Source: Nitrospirota bacterium (GTDB lineage: Bacteria; Nitrospirota; UBA9217). Taken from it: a stretch of DNA of 64,000 nucleotides. The stretch's first letter is position 1; each line of letters opens with the position of its first letter. This document shows, in pieces, positions 33,673 to 61,951 of the stretch. The stretch spans positions 16,390 through 80,389 of the forward strand of contig JBARBN010000106.1 of assembly GCA_049793155.1 (NCBI GenBank), written 5' to 3'. Under the pieces are notes generated by a model that worked only from the letters and a program-made list of their open reading frames with translations, was not told the origin of the DNA and searched no databases. The position numbers and the translations under genes were made by a program.

Positions 33673-33951
33673 TTAATACTTCATTCCTTTATTTTCGGGC
33701 GCTTCCTTCTTCTCATCGCCCTTCATCATCTTATCGTCCGTCATCATCTTGTCGTCTTTCATCATCGTATCATCTTTTTTCATCGTATCATCGCTTTTCA
33801 TCGTCTCGTCTTTCATCATCCCCTTGTCGTCTTTCATCATCGAATCATCCTTCTTCATGGACTTGTCGTCCATGTCCGCGGCAAAGACGGGACCCGCAAG
33901 CAGGAATACGGCGATGGTCGCGAGCAGAAATGTTCCTATTTTCCTAGTCAT
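33673..33951 (-). CDS. Secreted Met/Asp/Lys-rich repeat protein ((M)MKDD pentapeptide repeats)
   Basis: The RBS 'aaggaggtgaaaacc' precedes the ATG at 33951. The signal peptide is MTRKIGTFLLATIAVFLLAGPVFA. The mature part is tandem repeats MKKDDSMMKDDKGMMKDETMKSDDTMKKDDTMMKDDKMMTDDKMMKGD, encoded by tandem DNA repeats. Confidence 0.65.
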   Translation of the reverse strand: MTRKIGTFLLATIAVFLLAGPVFAADMDDKSMKKDDSMMKDDKGMMKDETMKSDDTMKKDDTMMKDDKMMTDDKMMKGDEKKEAPENKGMKY

Positions 33952-53103: not shown

Positions 53104-53484
53104 TTACCCCTTATATTCCCTCAGCGTCTTCGTCTTCTTTGCCTTTGCCTTCCCCTTCTTTTCCGGCAGCGACAGCGCGTACTCCTTCCCTATCCCCAGC
53201 CACTTTGCGAGACCTGCGGCGCCCTTCCAACCTGCTTCCCGCACCATGACCCAGCCGCTCATCGGCTTGCCGGTGATATCGAAGGGCTGCACGTTCTTGT
53301 CCTTGAGGCTCTTCTCTCCCTGCTCCTTGTCCGTGCGCACGATCAGGCTGTCCTTGTGGATGCCGAAGGCCATGTTGCCCCTGAGCAGGTAGCCCACGCC
53401 GCCGAACATCTTCTTCTTTTCCAGGTCCTTCCAGCGCTTCGCGGCAATATCGATCATTGCCTCCAATTTTTCGTTATAGGGCAT
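53104..53484 (-). CDS. TfoX N-terminal domain family protein
   Basis: The stretch KKKMFGGVGYLLRGNMAFGIHKDSLIVR matches the TfoX_N consensus. Confidence 0.55.
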   Translation of the reverse strand: MPYNEKLEAMIDIAAKRWKDLEKKKMFGGVGYLLRGNMAFGIHKDSLIVRTDKEQGEKSLKDKNVQPFDITGKPMSGWVMVREAGWKGAAGLAKWLGIGKEYALSLPEKKGKAKAKKTKTLREYKG

Positions 53485-53499: not shown

Positions 53500-53620
53500 T
53501 GCCGACGAGAAACGACTAAGTACCGACAAGGATCGACGCAGAATTGACCAGGCGACATGTTAATGCAAAAAAAACCGACGAGAATCGACCGTCAGTCTTC
53601 ACCTGGAGCCGCTTTTTTGA
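53500..53620 (-). repeat. Partial R3-type repeat (gtcgattctcgtcgg, cggtacttagtcg motifs)
   Basis: The reverse complement shares 'gtcgattctcgtcgg' and 'gtacttagtcg' with 22770-22895 and 58545-58717. Confidence 0.4.
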
Positions 53621-53621
53621 G

Positions 53622-53668
53622 AAGAATATCCTTATTGCGGGGAAAAGTAAAGTAGGTTTTTGAGAGAC
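53622..53668 (+). repeat. R1 block 'aagaatatccttattgcggggaaaagtaaagtaggtttttgagag'
   Basis: Matches 41988-42028. Confidence 0.45.
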
Positions 53669-53738
53669 TAATGAGTTCATAGAGTTCATAGAGTTTATAG
53701 AGTTCATTGAGTTTGTAGCGTCTAAAGAGTTTAAATCA
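53669..53738. repeat. Tandem 9-bp repeat array (gagttcata x about 7; consensus GAGTYNATA)
   Basis: actaatgagttcatagagttcatagagtttatagagttcattgagtttgtagcgtctaaagagtttaaatc. Strict 9-bp periodicity is visible in the sequence. Confidence 0.55.
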
Positions 53739-53833
53739 TCACGCGCTCAAGATAATCTTGCCCCCGAGACCGACTATTTGTATAATAAGAACAAGTGCGT
53801 ATCCTTCATGAGAAAAGACCTGAACTATTGTCC

Positions 53834-56800
53834 ATGACCTTGCGAAAGAAAATACTAATCTGGCTTGCGGTCAGCATGACCGTGTTCCTTGCCGCCGTGA
53901 TCTTCATGGCGCCGGTCTATCTTAATTCCAAGTCAGCGAAAGGCGGCATCGAGGCCGCGGTATCGAAACGGCTCGGTGGAACCATGTCGTATGAGAGGCT
54001 CGATCTTTCACTCTTTCCCCGCCCCCATATCTCGATCACGAAGCTGAAGCTTCGCTATCCCCGGACGTTCCGCGGGACCCTTCAAGCGCTCGACATTTAT
54101 CCTCAACTCTTGCCGCTGTTCTCCGGCAAAATGCGCCTTGCGAAGATCCGGATCGCGGAGCCCGACTTCAGGGTCATTCTGCCCGCATCGGTCTCTGAAT
54201 CAACTGCAGAGGCTCCCTCTCTTGTAGAGGCCAAGAAAGATATTCGCGCCGCGCTCTACTATCTGGAGGCTATCGGCCCGGGCCTTGTCATGGAGATGGA
54301 CAACGGCAAATTCCTTTTCAGGAGGAGTCACCGGGATTTTCTCTCTCTGAAGGACGTGACCGTGCACTTCAACGCGCCGCCCGGCGATATGAAGTTCCTG
54401 GTCAAGGCATCCACGGAGCAATGGGGGAATTTTTCCTTGAGTGGATCCTATTCCTTCACCGAGGAGAGGTCTGAGGTCAGGGACCTGGCAATATCCATGG
54501 GGCTCTCTTCTCTCACCGGATTTTCCGCGAACCTGTATTGGGACCGCATACCCTGGCTGGACATGTTCTCAGGCAGCGCCGTGGTCAATCTCGATGAGCT
54601 CTACTCCTGGCTGTCGTCCTCGGAAAGCCTGACTCCGTTTCTGCAGCACGTGCGCCTGAAACGCGGGGTGCTGACCATCTCCTCCCTGTTCGGCGGCGGG
54701 CTGATCGATCATCCCGAGACATGGAAGGGAAAGATGACCGGCGAGGTGAAGGATGTGCTCGCGGAATCTCACTGGCTACCGGCGCCGCTGGGCCTCAGCA
54801 CCCGGTTCATAATCGATGAAAGCACCCTGGAAGTCACCGGGTTGTCGGCCCGGCTTGGATCATCTTCCCTTGACAATGTCTCGGCGCAGTTTGTTAAAAG
54901 TAAGGTGCCCGACTTCGCGGTTTCAGAAGGACGGGCATCGATCGACCTGGCAGAGCTGTTTGGCTGGAGGAGCAGGTACGAAAAGGCAGGGACGATGTTA
55001 AAAGACATTAATGATCTCGCTGGTAAAATATCCCTCTCTTCTCTGAGCATGGGAGGTCCACTGCTGCAGCCCGAGAAATGGCGTCTGAACATCACGGGCG
55101 AGGCGAGGGGGATCGCGATAGGCTCTCCTCTCCTCCCCGCGTCGCTTGGCGTAAGCGGACGGTTCTCCCTGGAGGAGAACAAGGTGGCGATCTCGGACAC
55201 GACGGTCCGCCTCGGCACGTCATCCCTGTCCCGCGTCTCCGCGAGCATCACCGGCCGCGATACACCCGTGCTCGAGATCGCGAACGCCAACGCGCTCATC
55301 CATGTTGCAGAGGTTTTCCAGTGGCGCAGCCGGTACCCGGCGTTGGACAGCTCGCTGAGCAGCGTGCATGACCTGAAGGGAGATCTGACCGTGACCTCGC
55401 TTGGTTTCAGGGGACCGCTGCTTCATCCCGAGCGCGGAGAGATCACTGCTGCCGGCGGTCTTGACCATATCATCATCGACTCATCGATCCTGCCGGCGCC
55501 GTTCGGTCTGGCAAGAGGCGATTTCAGGTTCGTTCCGGACAGCTTGTCCTTCGGCCTGCGCGAAGCCACGATCCTGGATTCGTCCCTGACCGGTACGGCC
55601 GTTATCAGCCGCATTACAAACACCCTGGAACGCACCATCGATATGACCATTGACGGGAGCTCCGGCAGAAAAACGCTTGACTGGGTCTTTGCGAACCTCG
55701 AACTGCCGCCCGGGCTCATGATCAAGACCCCCATTGCGGTCAGGAATTCCCATCTGACCTGGGAAGGGACAAAAGGACTCACCTTCTCCGGATCGATATC
55801 CGTTCCGGAAGGACTGGCCTTCCTCGTCGATCTTACCCAACGCAATACCGATCTCGACATCCGGCGTCTGGTGATCAAGGACCGGGAGACGAACGCGGCC
55901 ATCACGTTGAACTGGCAGAAACAGAAGGCAGACATTTCCTATTCAGGTGTCATGGCCCAGTCCACGCTGAGCAGAATATTCGAACAGGGAAATTTCGGCA
56001 AAGGCTCCGTACAGGGCGATATTCATGCAGTGATCCACACGGACCTTCCGCTCAGGTCCCGCATCAAAGGCGATCTTGAAGGCAGCGATATTTTCATTCC
56101 CTGGGGGATGCCGGTGCCCATCACGATCGACAAGTTCGCGATCAACGCAGATGGTGATGTCCTGACCGTGGACAAAGCTGATGTCACCTGGGGCGGACAT
56201 CATTACTCCATGACGGGCGCGGCAACGACCTCGGACGAGGGGATCGCCTTCAGCATGGCGCTCAAGGCCGACGGCATTGAGATACAGGAAATTCAGCAGG
56301 CCATGGAGCAGGCAGGCAGGAAAAGCACCGATCAAAAGGTCAGGTCTTTTCCCCTGCCGCCCATACGGGGCGACCTCCGAGCCGACTCGTCGTATGTTAA
56401 ATTCAGAAGCTTTATCTTTGCCCCCGCCCACGCCGTCGTAACCGTGGATCCGGACAGGGTGAACATGGAATTTACCGACACCAGGACCTGCGATATTTCG
56501 ATACCGGGTTCGCTCCTTATTTCACGGGAAAGCATCTCTTTTACGTTCACCCCCACGGCAAAGAAAGAAACCCTGGGTTATACGGTCTCCTGCCTGACGA
56601 ACATGGATGCGCATATCTCCGGCGAGTATGACCTAAGTTCGAGTTTCAGGTCGCACGGTATGGGAAAAGAGCTGCTCTCTGCCCTGGAAGGCAGGGTGGA
56701 TTTCAAGGCGCGGGACGGCAAGATTTACCATTATCCGCTCCTGCAAAAAATATTTTCCGTTTTGAGCGTGCTTGATATCTTTCGCGGCAGGGCCCCGGAC

Positions 56801-57190
56801 TTTGGGGGAAGCGGCTTCCCTTATCATTCCATGGCAATACGGGGAGATATTCACCAAGGCGTTTTCACCCTGGAGAAAGCCTATATCGGCGGGCAGTCTT
56901 TGGACATCATTGCCGAAGGCAAGATCGATCTGGGAAAGCAGCGTTTGGACCTCATCGTGCTCGTTGCGCCCTTTTCATCGATCAACTGGATCATCCGGCA
57001 CATTCCGCTCGTAGGAAAGGTCATGGGCGGCACCCTCATCTCGATCCCGGTCCGGGTGTCCGGCGATCTGACGAATCCGAGTGTTGTATTCCTCTCACCC
57101 ACGGCCGTGGGCTCCCGGATCTTGAAGCTTTTGGAGAACATCATAAAACTGCCGGTGGATATCGTTTCGCCGCTGATGCCGAAGCAATAA
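53834..57190 (+). CDS. AsmA-family large envelope protein (N-terminal TM anchor, long repetitive beta-rich body, AsmA-like C-terminus)
   Basis: About 1119 aa. The N-terminus is MTLRKKILIWLAVSMTVFLAAVIF. The body has repetitive segments (RLGSSSLDNVSAQF / RLGTSSLSRVSASI). The start was chosen at the ATG (53834) over the upstream GTG. Confidence 0.55.
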   Translation: MTLRKKILIWLAVSMTVFLAAVIFMAPVYLNSKSAKGGIEAAVSKRLGGTMSYERLDLSLFPRPHISITKLKLRYPRTFRGTLQALDIYPQLLPLFSGKMRLAKIRIAEPDFRVILPASVSESTAEAPSLVEAKKDIRAALYYLEAIGPGLVMEMDNGKFLFRRSHRDFLSLKDVTVHFNAPPGDMKFLVKASTEQWGNFSLSGSYSFTEERSEVRDLAISMGLSSLTGFSANLYWDRIPWLDMFSGSAVVNLDELYSWLSSSESLTPFLQHVRLKRGVLTISSLFGGGLIDHPETWKGKMTGEVKDVLAESHWLPAPLGLSTRFIIDESTLEVTGLSARLGSSSLDNVSAQFVKSKVPDFAVSEGRASIDLAELFGWRSRYEKAGTMLKDINDLAGKISLSSLSMGGPLLQPEKWRLNITGEARGIAIGSPLLPASLGVSGRFSLEENKVAISDTTVRLGTSSLSRVSASITGRDTPVLEIANANALIHVAEVFQWRSRYPALDSSLSSVHDLKGDLTVTSLGFRGPLLHPERGEITAAGGLDHIIIDSSILPAPFGLARGDFRFVPDSLSFGLREATILDSSLTGTAVISRITNTLERTIDMTIDGSSGRKTLDWVFANLELPPGLMIKTPIAVRNSHLTWEGTKGLTFSGSISVPEGLAFLVDLTQRNTDLDIRRLVIKDRETNAAITLNWQKQKADISYSGVMAQSTLSRIFEQGNFGKGSVQGDIHAVIHTDLPLRSRIKGDLEGSDIFIPWGMPVPITIDKFAINADGDVLTVDKADVTWGGHHYSMTGAATTSDEGIAFSMALKADGIEIQEIQQAMEQAGRKSTDQKVRSFPLPPIRGDLRADSSYVKFRSFIFAPAHAVVTVDPDRVNMEFTDTRTCDISIPGSLLISRESISFTFTPTAKKETLGYTVSCLTNMDAHISGEYDLSSSFRSHGMGKELLSALEGRVDFKARDGKIYHYPLLQKIFSVLSVLDIFRGRAPDFGGSGFPYHSMAIRGDIHQGVFTLEKAYIGGQSLDIIAEGKIDLGKQRLDLIVLVAPFSSINWIIRHIPLVGKVMGGTLISIPVRVSGDLTNPSVVFLSPTAVGSRILKLLENIIKLPVDIVSPLMPKQ

Positions 57191-57255: not shown

Positions 57256-58344
57256 CTACTCGATGGTCGAGTTGATGATCTCGGTAAAGGTGTCGCTGTG
57301 CATCGAGATCCCGGGCAGTGCATACCACGACCCGCCGACATTGCGGCTTATCACGGAATCTTCCACGTGAAGCGTGCCGGTATGGTCGTTCGAAATGAAG
57401 AAGATCGCGGAGCCGTAGCTGTTCACTTCGTTGTCCCTGATGTCCGACCCGTACAATGCAAGCGTCATGGTATTGCCGTCGTTGTAGATCGCGCCTCCGC
57501 TCCCGCCGCCGGGGGTCCCGGACTGGACGGGATTGCCGCCATTACCGATCGCCCGGTTGTGTGAGAACAGGCTGTTATAGATCGCCCAGGAGACCCCGAT
57601 GCTGCTGATGCCGCCGCCGTTCGCGCCGACGTTGCCGTAGCCCGGCGCACCGCCAAAGGTGCTGTTCACCACATAAACAGGAAGGCCGTTGTATTGGCTG
57701 AAGACCCGGACTGCGGCGCCCCCGACATCGGGCCCCGAGTCGGCGCAGACATTATTGAAGAACCGGCTGTTTACGACCTTGAACCGGCCTCCCCTGACCC
57801 AGACGGCCCCGCCGCCATCGTACACGGTCTCATTCCTGGAGTTGCCGTCGATGAACGTCAGGTTCTGGATGGTCAGTCGCGGATGGTCCTGGTCCTGGCA
57901 ATGCGACGTGGTCCACACCTGGTCCTGATCGCACGTGTTCATGTACAGAATGCGGGTAACGCCCCCGCCGCTCAGCGTGACCAGCCCGCCACCATCGATC
58001 ACGACATCCGGCCGGTCATTGAACACCTTGGCCGGGCGATCGAGGGTGATTGTGAGCGGACCGGGTCCGCAATCGAAGGTGATCTTGCCGCCTTGGGCAA
58101 CGGCCTGGATAAACTCCTCTGCCGTGCAGCTCTCGCGCGTTCCGCTGCCGATGACATGATCCGGGGAAGAAACGTCCTCAGCCCCGGCCCCGGCAGGGAC
58201 GAGATAGTGGCCGGACGGATTTCCGGCTAACGGTCCCTGCAGCGGGTCCGTATGGGGGTCAGCTACCGGCGTATTGCCTGTTTCTCCTGTGCCGCTGCTG
58301 CAAGCACAGCATAGTACGATCCCGAGGACAGCGATCGCCTTCAT
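57256..58344 (-). CDS. Secreted/lipoprotein-like protein with right-handed parallel beta-helix (pectate-lyase-like) repeats
   Basis: The signal sequence is MKAIAVLGIVLCCACSSG. The repeats are Gly/Asn-rich (NNV, GGGA, GNGG, ISNDHTG). Confidence 0.65.
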   Translation of the reverse strand: MKAIAVLGIVLCCACSSGTGETGNTPVADPHTDPLQGPLAGNPSGHYLVPAGAGAEDVSSPDHVIGSGTRESCTAEEFIQAVAQGGKITFDCGPGPLTITLDRPAKVFNDRPDVVIDGGGLVTLSGGGVTRILYMNTCDQDQVWTTSHCQDQDHPRLTIQNLTFIDGNSRNETVYDGGGAVWVRGGRFKVVNSRFFNNVCADSGPDVGGAAVRVFSQYNGLPVYVVNSTFGGAPGYGNVGANGGGISSIGVSWAIYNSLFSHNRAIGNGGNPVQSGTPGGGSGGAIYNDGNTMTLALYGSDIRDNEVNSYGSAIFFISNDHTGTLHVEDSVISRNVGGSWYALPGISMHSDTFTEIINSTIE

Positions 58345-58386
58345 CAGCTGAAGTCTCTCAGGGTTCGGTCTTTTTTCGTGCATCAC

Positions 58387-58544: not shown

Positions 58545-58717
58545 AACAACCGATGTAAAGCGACTGAGTACCTACTAGAACCGAAACTGATGAAGACCGA
58601 CGAGAATCGACAAAAAGCGATCTCCGAGTCGCTTCTCCGCCGCTTCTCGTCGCCTTTACGTCTGCCTTTTTGCCTCTTCGTCGCCTTGCATCGCTTTACA
58701 TCGCTTTACGTCTGTCT
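58545..58717 (-). repeat. R3 composite repeat, inverted orientation relative to 22770-22895
   Basis: The rc contains gacgtaaagcga, gcaaggcgac, agaagcgactcggagat, cgctttttgtcgattctcgtc. Confidence 0.5.
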
Positions 58718-60541
58718 TTAGCCGCTCTCCTTGATGACGCGGTAGACGGTCTCGCTGAAGTCTTTAATGCTGTAGGGCTTGGTCAAGACGCCTTTGAAGC
58801 CGAACTTCCTGAATTGCTCCATGACCGTATCATTGGAATAACCGCTCGACACGATCGCCCGGACATTAGGGTCTAATTCGAGCAGTTTCGCAACCGCTTC
58901 CTTTCCTCCCATGCCTCCCGGTATGGTCAAATCCATGATGACCGCGTGAAAGGGCTTCCCCGACGCCATTGCCTCTTGGTAAGCCTCTATCGCACTCTTC
59001 CCCTCTTGAGCAAGCACGACATCATAGCCCAGGGCTATAAGGATTTTTTTCGACGCGTCCCGGACTGCCTCGTCATCGTCCATGACCAGTATCCGTCCGT
59101 CTCCCTTCTGAAGTTCCTGTTTCTTGACCTCTTGTTTCACGACCTTGCCTTCCGACGCGGGAAGGTAGATGATGAAGGTCGTACCCTTGCCCAATACGGA
59201 GGACGCGGTGATCTGGCCCTTATGTTTTTTTATAATGGAATAGGACGTCGCAAGACCGAGGCCGTTTCCATTCTTTTTCGTCGTAAAATACGGATCAAAT
59301 ATTTTTGACAGATGTTCTTTCGCTATGCCTGCTCCGCAGTCTTCAATCGATATTTTCACATACTTTCCTTTATCCAGGGAAGGGATATTCGACGCGCCGA
59401 GCTCGACATTCTCGCCGATGACCGTGATCGAACCGCCGGCCTGCATGGCCTGGTCCGCGTTGATGACCATATTATTGATAACCTGTCTCAACTGTCCCCC
59501 ATCGGCGTCGACAAGCCAGAGGTCCTGCGGAATGGAAAATTCACACTTCACCTTGGTCCCCCGCAGGGAGAAATGCACTGAGTCCTTGATGAGCTCCCCG
59601 ATGGCCTGCGTGCTCTTGACCGGCCCCCCTCCTTTGGAGAAGGTCAGGAGCTGCTGGGTCAGATCCTTTGCCCTGAGAGTCGCCTGCGCAGCCTCCTCCA
59701 GCCGTTCAAAGACCTTATTCTCCTGGACGGAATACATCTTCGCCAGTTCAACGTTGCTCAGGATCCCCGACAGGAGATTGTTAAAGTCATGGGCGATCCC
59801 GCCAGCAAGAAGGCCGACCGATTCAAGCTTCTGCGCGCTGAGAAGCTCTTCTTCCATTGCCTTGCGCTCGGTAATGTCTATGATCATTGCCTGTTTGGAA
59901 ATGGTGCCGTCCGTGTTGCGAATGGGCGTATTGGTCACATGGTACCACCGGTTGTCCTTGGGGCTCTGCACTTCCCATTCAACGGTTTCACCCCTCAGCA
60001 CCTTGTCATTCACACACCAGGTACAAACAGAATCCTTTTCGTGCAAAGCTTCATAACAGTTCCGCCCGGTGGCGTCGTAACCGGTGCGTTCTTTCAACCG
60101 GTCGTTCATGAACTCAATGCGATAGTCCGGAGAACAAATGTAGATGAATCCGTCAAAGGCCTCGATCATGGCGCGGTACCTCGCTTCGCTCCGCGCGAGC
60201 GCCTGCTCGGTCTGAATCCGTTCCGCGATCTCCTGCTGAAGCCGCAGGTTGATGCTTTTCAGCTGTGCCGTGTACCTCATAAAATATATAACGATCGGAG
60301 CGACGATCAAGGGCACGAACAGCGCGTCAATGGCGCCTATGATCAGCAGCTCTGTCGACAGCTTTCCGTACCAGATAAAGCTTTGTACGGAATTCAGCAG
60401 TGCCGTAAATAGTTCCGAAATTACGACGGCAATCCAGATGAAATGCCAGGGATTTATCGGCTTCTTGTTCTCATTCATGTTTGTGATCATACGTGGTGCG
60501 CTCCGCACTGCATCAGGAAACCTCCCCTTTCTGCCCGACAA
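58718..60541 (-). CDS. Hybrid sensor histidine kinase (TM, PAS, HisKA, HATPase_c, C-terminal REC)
   Basis: HisKA is AHDFNNLLSGI. HATPase is GNGLGLATSY. The REC is ILVMDDDEAV...VIMDLTIPGGMGG. A TTG start follows a 'gaagga' RBS-like sequence. An ATG alternative lies at 60490. Confidence 0.8.
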   Translation of the reverse strand: MSGRKGRFPDAVRSAPRMITNMNENKKPINPWHFIWIAVVISELFTALLNSVQSFIWYGKLSTELLIIGAIDALFVPLIVAPIVIYFMRYTAQLKSINLRLQQEIAERIQTEQALARSEARYRAMIEAFDGFIYICSPDYRIEFMNDRLKERTGYDATGRNCYEALHEKDSVCTWCVNDKVLRGETVEWEVQSPKDNRWYHVTNTPIRNTDGTISKQAMIIDITERKAMEEELLSAQKLESVGLLAGGIAHDFNNLLSGILSNVELAKMYSVQENKVFERLEEAAQATLRAKDLTQQLLTFSKGGGPVKSTQAIGELIKDSVHFSLRGTKVKCEFSIPQDLWLVDADGGQLRQVINNMVINADQAMQAGGSITVIGENVELGASNIPSLDKGKYVKISIEDCGAGIAKEHLSKIFDPYFTTKKNGNGLGLATSYSIIKKHKGQITASSVLGKGTTFIIYLPASEGKVVKQEVKKQELQKGDGRILVMDDDEAVRDASKKILIALGYDVVLAQEGKSAIEAYQEAMASGKPFHAVIMDLTIPGGMGGKEAVAKLLELDPNVRAIVSSGYSNDTVMEQFRKFGFKGVLTKPYSIKDFSETVYRVIKESG

Positions 60542-61034
60542 AATGGTCCTTCTTGTCCTTGAACAGGATGTTGAACGTGGTCAGGGAACCATATATGCGG
60601 GTAATGTACTGCTGCAGCTCTACCTTCTCGGTGTCGGTCAACTTCTTATGGCCGTTGATCTGCGCCTCCATGACCCGCAGGCGGTCGCGGACCATCACGA
60701 TCTTGTGGAAGAAGGCCTCGATCGGAACGGACTTTGGCGTCTGGCCCGTGTCAGCCGGCTTCAGCACCAGCTCCCCGCCCTGCCACCGCGCGCCGAGCTC
60801 GATCGCGGGCAAGTCCTCCTCGTTCAACTCGCGGGCGGCGAGCATCACCATCTCGTACGCCGCCGCCTCGGCATCGGACAGCGGCTGCAGATCATCAACA
60901 TCGACCAGGGTCTGCTTGTACAAACGCGGGAAATAGACCTCGCAATCAGGTCCGCCGCCCTTTGCCGTGCTTTCCACGCGGCCGATGCCGAAATGATCGT
61001 GCCGCACAAAGTCTCCCTTTAACAGGTCAGCCAT
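60513..61034 (-). CDS. Hypothetical protein (173 aa) whose 3' end overlaps the hybrid kinase start by about 29 nt
   Basis: The RBS 'ccgggagg' precedes the ATG at 61034 (MADLLKGDFVRHDHFGIGRV...). The longer track ORF (to 61469) overlaps the nitroreductase gene and was truncated. Confidence 0.55.
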   Translation of the reverse strand: MADLLKGDFVRHDHFGIGRVESTAKGGGPDCEVYFPRLYKQTLVDVDDLQPLSDAEAAAYEMVMLAARELNEEDLPAIELGARWQGGELVLKPADTGQTPKSVPIEAFFHKIVMVRDRLRVMEAQINGHKKLTDTEKVELQQYITRIYGSLTTFNILFKDKKDHFVGQKGEVS

Positions 61035-61052: not shown

Positions 61053-61118
61053 TGTAAAGTCTAAAGAGGATATAGAGTCTATTGAGTAAATAGAGTTAAT
61101 GGAATTTGTAGAAATTAA
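61053..61118. repeat. Tandem 9-bp repeat array (aagtctaaa gaggatata gagtctatt gagtaaata gagttaatg gaatttgta gaaattaaa)
   Basis: 9-bp periodicity. It belongs to the GAGTYNATA family. It lies immediately upstream of the 60513-61034 gene. Confidence 0.5.
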
Positions 61119-61780
61119 AAACCTTTGAACCGGACAGCTTCTTCCACTCTTCTTCTTGTGCTCCGGAATTTGTTCTGCGCGTGATCGGGATCGGGATAGC
61201 CGAGTGCGATGCCTATGACGATCGCGAGGTGGTCGGGTATGCCGAGTTCCTCGCGGATCAGATCGGGATGGGCCGCAAGGGTGACGGCCACGGCCGAGCC
61301 GATCCCCTGCTCCTCCGCCGCGAGCATGATACCGTGGCTCATTGCGCCGAGATCGAACAAGGACCACGGGGTGAGGCAGCGGTCCATGCAGAGGTAGACG
61401 ACAACGGGCGCGTTGAACAACCTGTAGTTCATCTGCATCAGATCGGGGATGGAGGCAGGGTCCTTGCACACCTGCTCAAGTGCTTCGGCGCGCCCGGACT
61501 TGAGCGCTTCCATGCGCATGCGGCACTCCTCGGACCATGCCCCGGGTATCGCGATGTCCGGGTTCCGGGGCACACAGTTCTTGAGGTTCACGGCATATGC
61601 CGTGCGCAGCCGCTCGAGCGGCTCCCCCGCGGCAACGACGATCTCCCACGGCTGGGTATTGGCCCAGGAAGGCGCGTGAAGCGCGGGCTCGAGGACCTTT
61701 ATGAGCAGAGCCCGGTCGATGCGGTCCGGTTTGAAGGCGCGAATGGTGCGGCGGGTGGTTAAAGCATCAGTGACGTTCAT
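61115..61780 (-). CDS. Nitroreductase-family protein (FMN-dependent)
   Basis: RRTIRAF ... PSWANTQPW, which is the nitroreductase fold. The start is at the ATG (MNVTDALTT). Confidence 0.75.
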   Translation of the reverse strand: MNVTDALTTRRTIRAFKPDRIDRALLIKVLEPALHAPSWANTQPWEIVVAAGEPLERLRTAYAVNLKNCVPRNPDIAIPGAWSEECRMRMEALKSGRAEALEQVCKDPASIPDLMQMNYRLFNAPVVVYLCMDRCLTPWSLFDLGAMSHGIMLAAEEQGIGSAVAVTLAAHPDLIREELGIPDHLAIVIGIALGYPDPDHAQNKFRSTRRRVEEAVRFKGF

Positions 61781-61871
61781 AGGGTTCAGTGACCCCCTTT
61801 TTTTGTTCAAAGCGTACTCCAAATGAACGAATTTGGCAAGAGGTATCAGTTCGGGTCAGGATGCGGTATGG

Positions 61872-61930
61872 AAAGTCTATTGAGTTCATAGAGTCTATTG
61901 TGTTCATAAAGTCTAAAGAGTGTATAGAGG
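61872..61930. repeat. Tandem 9-bp repeat array (aagtctatt gagttcata gagtctatt gtgttcata aagtctaaa gagtgtata)
   Basis: An 18-bp super-unit 'gagtctattgagttcata' repeats twice. The array is upstream of the nitroreductase gene. Confidence 0.55.
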
Positions 61931-61951
61931 TGAGGAGATGTCTGCTCAAGA

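Follow-up and report, generated by a model that had tools for sequence, protein, structure and literature searches.

Short tandem repeats that serve as docking sites for DNA-binding proteins have been described on several plasmids. The parH and OF sites of TP228 hold 12 and 8 degenerate ACTC boxes, respectively, separated by 4-bp AT-rich spacers, and one dimer of the ribbon-helix-helix (RHH) protein ParG occupies each box and coats the array cooperatively, the box being read directly and the spacer being tolerant (PMC3130281). The centromere of pCXC100, which is bound by an RHH ParB, is built from nine unspaced, non-palindromic and weakly conserved 9-bp direct repeats, and its footprint has a protection period of 9.0 bp, i.e., successive dimers can tile at this spacing (PMC3074162). 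The KfrA operator of RA3 consists of five 9-bp repeats that overlap the regulator's own promoter and are bound by this oligomerising regulator (PMC7783346). Moreover, multicopy tandem hepta-, octa- and nonanucleotide 'global regulator binding sites' have been predicted in Geobacter metallireducens (PMC2700814). Here, three arrays of 9-bp repeats in a 64-kb stretch of Nitrospirota DNA (the window) were analyzed with regard to these systems; a description of their ACTC/GAGT motif was not found in the literature on 9-bp tandem repeats.

The arrays pointed out in an earlier note on the window were confirmed, and their limits were refined to 53664-53735 for A1 (eight 9-bp units), 61057-61119 for A2 (seven units) and 61873-61935 for A3 (seven units, the last of which is weak), all described here on the minus strand, on which the units of A1 read TTTAAACTC TTTAGACGC TACAAACTC AATGAACTC TATAAACTC TATGAACTC TATGAACTC ATTAGTCTC. 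Tandem Repeats Finder called A1 with a period of 9 at 53673-53713 (4.6 copies, 90% match) and additionally in period-18 and period-27 versions, A2 with a period of 18 at 61058-61096 and of 9 at 61072-61100, and A3 with a period of 18 at 61872-61915 (2.4 copies, 88% match), the latter confirming the 18-bp super-unit reported earlier for A3. A two-unit pattern allowing up to 3 mismatches matched 20 times in the 64-kb window as compared to 1.98 matches expected, and 19 of the 20 matches fell inside the arrays. Since 18 of these are on the plus strand, A1, A2 and A3 share one orientation; the 19th, with 3 mismatches, lies on the minus strand within A2. With a four-unit position weight matrix (PWM), scores of 40-51 were obtained for the arrays, those of shuffled sequence did not exceed 14.5, and sites of two or three units were not found outside A1-A3 in the window. 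When 9-bp periodicity was searched for independently of the motif, A1 and A2 were detected with relaxed thresholds but A3 was not, so that negative results for arrays in relatives rest mainly on the PWM scan.

On the minus strand, each unit (consensus TATAGACTC) is composed of a conserved ACTC box, which is GAGT on the plus strand, and a variable 5-bp AT-rich spacer. Comparison of 61 units, 34 of them distinct, from four lineages revealed 97% conservation at positions 6 and 7 (A and C), 84% at position 8 (T) and 85% at position 9 (C), as compared to 44-77% agreement at positions 1-5 (W-A-T-R-R). The consensus was violated in 18/136 box positions versus 59/170 spacer positions (Fisher p ~2e-5, which is optimistic because duplication and common descent make the units non-independent). 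As far as can be read from these sequences, the pattern is that of a putative recognition core with a tolerant spacer, unlike uniform decay. Perfect periodicity extends over no more than 23 bp in A1, 13 bp in A2 and 13 bp in A3, the units being degenerate.

Several known element types were considered and rejected. The contiguous 9-bp units differ from the 23-50 bp repeats with unique spacers of similar length that make up CRISPR arrays, as the earlier note had stated. Its claim that the arrays are not coding repeats also stands, since, judged by the start and stop codons shared with relatives, they are located between the reading frames; the reasoning from the 9-bp period was invalid, 9 being a multiple of 3. 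A larger dispersed element or MITE was rejected as the flanks of A1-A3 share no homology beyond the arrays themselves. Replication-origin iterons (~17-22 bp, beside a rep or initiator gene and an AT-rich unwinding element) do not correspond to a 9-bp unit present at three sites next to genes for TfoX_N, AsmA-like, nitroreductase, kinase and pnp products. Stacked -10, -35 or ECF-type promoter hexamers would require other spacings, and the resemblance hangs on variable positions, as reasoned from the sequences, and no consistent fit to DnaA boxes, IHF, Fis, CRP-S or GANTC methylation sites was seen by eye on comparison with their consensus sequences.

The gene neighbors named in the earlier note were correct, and four of the five flanking genes are on the minus strand. 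A1 is placed between divergent genes, one for a TfoX_N-only protein of 126 aa with a Lys/Ala-rich basic tail (53104-53484, minus strand, ATG 179 bp from A1), which is 100% identical to P0121, labelled Nitrospirota, and one for an AsmA/YhdP-like envelope protein (53834-57190, plus strand, ATG 98 bp from A1). The latter is preceded by a putative sigma-70-like promoter TTGCCC-17-TATAAT (53758-53786, plus strand, 10/12 matches) at 22 bp from A1, and the TfoX_N gene by a promoter-like sequence TTTACT-17-TATTCT (53623-53651, minus strand), presumed functional, at 12 bp from A1. A3 and A2 belong to a co-directional minus-strand string consisting of pnp, an FAD/NAD oxidoreductase gene, A3, a nitroreductase-family gene (61115-61780), A2, a gene for a 173-aa protein with an N-terminal Tudor-like domain (60513-61034) and a PAS-HisKA-REC hybrid kinase gene; the core genes pnp, rpsO and infB are close to the arrays. 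Between the oxidoreductase stop codon and A3 there are 16 bp, and 33 bp separate the other end of A3 from the -35-like hexamer of the nitroreductase gene, whose candidate promoter TTGCCA-17-TACGCT (61811-61839, minus strand) is downstream of A3 and whose ATG is 92 bp from it. A2 spans from the nitroreductase stop codon (61115-61117, within the last A2 unit) to the RBS of the 173-aa gene and ends 22 bp upstream of its ATG (61034). Judged from this layout, A2 is a stop-to-RBS spacer within the gene string and has no obvious promoter, and the earlier designation of the arrays as three promoter regions holds for A1 and A3 but not for A2. None of the arrays sits between a -35 and a -10 hexamer or within a reading frame.

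Further repeats and features were observed in the same DNA. A second repeat family with GTCGATTCTCGTCGG-type units of ~10-bp period is found on the minus strand at 53502-53589 and 58546-58611, with three units in the leader between the promoter-like site and the ATG of the TfoX_N gene and two in the leader of a gene for a 48-aa membrane peptide, two copies being exact. Just past the kinase stop codon, at 58648-58712, a purine-rich GTAAAGCGAT array (~10-bp period, ~6-8 copies) represents the inverted complement of the GTCGATTCTCGTCGG-type units, resulting in a long imperfect hairpin. Tandem Repeats Finder also called a complex, TCATCATC-rich repeat with periods 18, 36 and 75 at 33711-33858, which probably encodes an acidic repeat on the minus strand. 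The TfoX leader contains a terminator-like hairpin with an eight-T run (53570-53600, minus strand) downstream of the promoter-like site, which is kept in the relative L208 and could be an attenuator. A gene for a 376-aa Gly-rich putative lipoprotein (57256-58386, minus strand) is shared by the window and L202 (363 aa) but is lacking in L208 and L209, which indicates a gene-sized indel between close lineages.

The low G+C content of the arrays (25-35% as compared to 54% for the window) and the location of A1 and A3 a short distance before -35-like hexamers, a position from which UP elements and upstream activators work, are in line with the earlier suggestion of curved or AT-tract-like DNA. In this case the arrays would be AT-rich deformable or superhelically curved upstream elements that either modify the strength of the promoter in an UP-like manner or recruit general nucleoid proteins without base-specific recognition. 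However, AT-richness requires neither the near-invariant AC nor a conserved ACTC box, and a 9-bp period is expected to be out of phase with the ~10.5-bp helix, so that bends would not add in one plane. Moreover, A2 is not upstream of a recognizable promoter, and the comparable parH array of TP228 has no intrinsic bend (PMC3130281). An intrinsic property of the DNA as the function of the arrays is, hence, considered quite improbable.

The stability of the arrays was assessed in genomes at increasing distance. Two independent short-read contigs of one sample, SRR28023564, are 99.9% (L001) and 100% (L207) identical to the window, and no difference in array length was seen for A2 and A3 in the former or for A1 in the latter. 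The syntenic relatives compared were L202-L205 (91.6-93.2% nucleotide identity) and L208-L210 (87-88%), and in L208 and L209 arrays were detected only at the three orthologous sites in 20 kb. A1 has eight units in the window and six in L208, L209 and L210, with a unit order in L208 and L210 that differs from that of the window. The number of A2 units is constant in the window, L202-L205 and L208, where only point changes occurred. A3 comprises six units in L202, seven in the window, ~nine in L208 and ten in L203 and L204. Changes between lineages consist in gain, loss and reshuffling of whole units, and length differs only at 7-13% divergence. On the TfoX side, L208 has kept the hexamers TTTACT and TATCCT as well as the 12-bp distance to A1, with variation of the spacer between the hexamers, and on the AsmA side both hexamers are kept in L208. 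The promoter-like sequence TTGCCA-17-TACGCT of the nitroreductase gene is identical in L202, L203, L204 and L208 although A3 differs, and among the closest lineages hardly any change was seen in the 92 nt that separate A3 from the nitroreductase start codon. In L208, A3 is 45 bp instead of 33 bp away from the promoter, owing to a tandemly duplicated 12-bp stretch (AAACTGAYACC-type, at ~2880-2905) that lies between the array and the -35-like hexamer.

In more distant relatives (82-84% protein identity of the nitroreductase), the nitroreductase/173-aa gene pair keeps a spacer of 73-76 nt, and L123, L124 and L126 carry a degenerate array of ~4 units in this A2 spacer (PWM score ~20). The spacer of L122 aligns as well; the five spacers are 76% identical, the version in the window being about one unit longer. 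A1 and A3, searched for mainly by the PWM scan, are missing from these relatives. Instead of A3, a 7-bp CTGAACC/CTGAACT repeat precedes a CTTGCCCC site in L123 and L126; in L126 (9917-9955), this repeat counts 5 copies upstream of the nitroreductase orthologue and has a GAACYC core in common with the window unit. In L201, one spacer between convergent genes (1643-1834) contains three repeats, namely 7-bp GTAAGCA, 9-bp AAACTC-type and 7-bp ACCTTTC. The persistence of the arrays at orthologous sites while their units turn over suggests that what is maintained is the repeated box and not one given sequence.

The variation of A1 and A3 between lineages, in whole units, is what might be expected from slipped-strand phase variation, proposed in the earlier note, by which frequent gain and loss of units would switch the neighboring genes within a population. 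Contingency loci of pathogens are long perfect tracts whose switching takes place inside a population and, as a rule, changes the distance between -35 and -10 or shifts a reading frame. The arrays share with them short promoter-near repeats of variable unit number, but a long perfect tract was not seen here, nor was switching in the two contigs from one sample: the degenerate units leave only the short periodic tracts given above, the arrays in the contigs of SRR28023564 are equal in length to those of the window, unit number changes only between lineages that are 7-13% divergent, and no array is positioned where slippage would alter hexamer spacing or reading frame. Phase variation was, therefore, largely refuted and is regarded as highly improbable.

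The same turnover of whole units, the reshuffled unit order and the 18-bp and 27-bp higher-order periods, which are typical of block duplication, would also be produced by neutral or selfish minisatellites, i.e., functionless repeats arising by slippage or unequal exchange in unconstrained AT-rich DNA and spread by local gene conversion. The fact that intergenic DNA of this clade holds other, unrelated repeats (7-bp CTGAACC, GTAAGCA and ACCTTTC and 10-bp GTAAAGCGAT in the relatives) raises the prior for such a mutational origin, and the absence of A1 and A3 from more distant relatives points in the same direction. Contrarily, one unit is shared by three sites that are apart from each other and is missing from the rest of the 64 kb, and its decay is strongly uneven, with AC 97% conserved. 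Furthermore, A2 is stable in unit number among the window, L202-L205 and L208 and is recognizable even at 82-84% nitroreductase identity, and the gap of 12 bp between A1 and a conserved -35 hexamer is fixed. An origin of the arrays as minisatellites without function is regarded as rather unlikely.

To place the unit in a wider context, a genome collection was scanned for three exact GAGTNNATN units, a pattern that fixes 6/9 bases, and crude gene calls were used for the surroundings. At least 120 loci with three exact units were found in very diverse phyla. Among the matches listed, ~90 arrays are AT-rich and intergenic, the unit variants are genome-specific, several genomes contribute many contigs, and arrays are often at contig ends; convergent inverted pairs between genes are common (loci showing inverted pairs or polarity include L010, L011, L013, L016, L058, L077, L081, L108 and L118). 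When the matches listed were oriented by GAGT, gene boundaries at a distance of no more than 40 bp were counted 33 times 5' of the array as compared to 8 times 3' of it, an uncontrolled count from crude gene calls, with GAGT-sense arrays after stop codons and ACTC-sense arrays before an RBS or start codon. In the Bacteroidales MAG CAYMKE01, three genes unrelated to each other (L047, L053, L059) are preceded by an ACTC-sense array whose end is 12-20 nt away from their ATG. It is conceivable, but on these data unlikely, that the window arrays locally represent a class of intergenic 9-bp GAGT/ACTC-box arrays that is widespread across many phyla, has so far escaped description and follows a polarity rule. 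If so, a common mechanism would be implied, either a conserved class of proteins that coat such arrays or a constraint acting where transcription and translation meet.

A role at the RNA level was considered as well, in which A3 and A2 would load Rho after a stop codon, or A2 would provide the 173-aa gene with a leader free of structure and decoy starts. In the minus sense, the arrays contain 22-27% C and 3-8% G over 63-72 nt and thereby resemble a Rho-loading site, and they fold very weakly (-3.2 to -7 kcal/mol, z-scores of 0 to -2). A structured RNA was rejected: folding of the transcribed sense was no better than that of shuffles, no Rfam family (Rfam 15) matched at the gathering threshold in the whole window, and no tRNA gene was matched in it. 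Compared with rut sites (at least ~60-80 nt of unstructured, C-rich and G-poor RNA after a stop), A2 and A3 are well placed, the latter 16 nt past a stop codon and the former overlapping one, and an intrinsic terminator was not found there. The single orientation of the three arrays and the tendency of ACTC-sense arrays across phyla to directly precede an RBS or start codon are in line with an RNA-level role, too. However, both promoters that flank A1 point away from it, which makes its transcription in either sense unlikely, so that DNA would be the only level common to all three arrays. Rho primary sites prefer the UC dimer. The most conserved bases of the unit are instead the A and C of ACTC, and the arrays that follow stop codons across phyla are mostly G-rich in sense, i.e., the opposite of a Rho-loading site. 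Due to the position of A1 and the identity of the most conserved bases, an RNA-level role was ranked below a DNA-level role and is deemed unlikely.

Taken together, we propose, with a probability of about 0.45, that the arrays are a small chromosomal family of operator-like docking sites that would be coated cooperatively by a small DNA-binding protein and would co-regulate the flanking genes. Regulator binding sites, one of the possibilities raised in the earlier note, provide the best fit to the protected 4-bp box, to the conserved position of the sites next to conserved promoter hexamers and to the presence of three sites only. The anatomy of the unit, its conserved position, its turnover and the restriction to 8 kb were observed, whereas binding, cooperativity and regulatory effect are what we infer. 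By analogy to the plasmid systems, a sequence-specific protein of the RHH kind might bind with one dimer per 4-bp ACTC box, tolerating the 5-bp spacer, and might spread cooperatively over six to ten units and thus cover 55-90 bp of DNA. The coat on A1 would have a divergent promoter on either side, with 12 bp and 22 bp left to the -35 hexamers, and that on A3 would lie 33 bp upstream of the nitroreductase -35, while the coat on A2 would cover the DNA from the nitroreductase stop codon to the next RBS and could block read-through. In this way, the genes for the TfoX-like protein, the AsmA-like protein, the nitroreductase and the 173-aa protein with the kinase would come under common control. 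The position of A2 between a stop codon and an RBS is unusual for an operator and argues against docking sites.

A search for the binding protein among local genes did not find it. As in RHH arrays (parH/OF of ParG, the centromere of pCXC100 ParB, omega heptads), which are made up of degenerate head-to-tail units of 7-9 bp, six to ten units are present here in which a core is conserved and the AT-rich rest is tolerant, but the adjacent cognate RHH gene, usually accompanied by one for a ParA-type ATPase, was not found. In L202, L208 and L209, the genes called up to 10 kb to both sides comprised no members of the RHH, HTH, ParA or ParB families, members of the RHH, ParA or ParB families were absent among the window genes tested, and besides TfoX_N no recognized transcription factor family was detected among the gene calls within 10 kb in relatives. 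The only local candidate binder, and a speculative one, is the TfoX_N protein with its Lys/Ala-rich tail; the composition of this tail (PEKKGKAKAKKTKTLREYKG) recalls histone-like DNA-binding tails. The 173-aa protein belongs to a very large and highly conserved family (at least 8000 matches, the best 120 of which are 70-97% identical) and has no Pfam domain. Its AlphaFold model (mean pLDDT 70) displays a small N-terminal beta-barrel followed by long helices. The barrel matches the RNA-polymerase-binding Tudor domains of UvrD/PcrA (9dqs, 5dma, 7egs) with an rmsd of ~2 A and 21-33% identity and also matches CarD/CdnL, the likeness to UvrD/PcrA and CarD being sub-threshold at the sequence level. 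On the basis of this model, the protein may be an uncharacterized RNA-polymerase-associated factor. It was rejected as an autoregulating binder of the arrays, since its Tudor fold of the UvrD/PcrA/CarD type comprises no RHH or HTH. Likewise, the 48-aa product (a membrane peptide), a 146-aa product (with a signal peptide) and the 376-aa product (lipoprotein-like) were rejected, and apart from generic kinase matches no protein of the cluster was found to recur beside similar arrays in other phyla.

If the arrays are indeed docking sites, one regulator would control a small regulon in an uncultured Nitrospirota lineage, comprising the TfoX-like factor, the AsmA/YhdP-like protein, the nitroreductase and the Tudor-domain protein together with the hybrid kinase. 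This would mean that the array-coating mode of plasmid partition proteins also serves the control of chromosomal genes. Moreover, a site that is kept while its units turn over would offer a tractable case for studying the evolution of multi-site operators. The practical value is modest until the binder is identified.

Comparison with the known systems places the arrays close to, but outside of, plasmid partition sites. The parH and OF sites of TP228 are alike in that 8-12 degenerate ACTC boxes with short AT-rich spacers, mostly as direct repeats, extend over ~100 bp beside a promoter. They differ in the spacer, which is 4 bp in TP228 (8-bp period) and 5 bp in the Nitrospirota arrays (9-bp period), and in their setting, i.e., a plasmid site beside parF and parG as compared to three putative docking sites on a chromosome, with neither a ParA nor a ParG gene within 10 kb. 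The pCXC100 centromere is a single plasmid site beside parA and parB with the consensus AGNTGGAAA, unlike the Nitrospirota unit, and serves partition rather than regulation of chromosomal genes. In RA3, the KfrA repeats form one site, in mixed orientation around the -10 hexamer, and the binder is an HTH/coiled-coil autoregulator encoded adjacent to it, whereas the gene behind A2 encodes the Tudor-like protein. The sites of G. metallireducens resemble the Nitrospirota arrays in being chromosomal, intergenic and present at multiple loci, with 3-5 short tandem repeats, a proposed regulatory role and a binder that is not known (PMC2700814). Contrarily, these predictions have other unit sequences and fewer units per site, number dozens per genome and are usually paired on opposite strands. 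The Nitrospirota arrays join the ACTC-box logic of TP228 with a 9-bp period and, on paper, resemble such sites in their working, yet they do not qualify as a partition locus, being chromosomal and present at three sites, with no partition genes found nearby. They are best filed as a chromosomal variant of the tandem direct-repeat array for protein docking.
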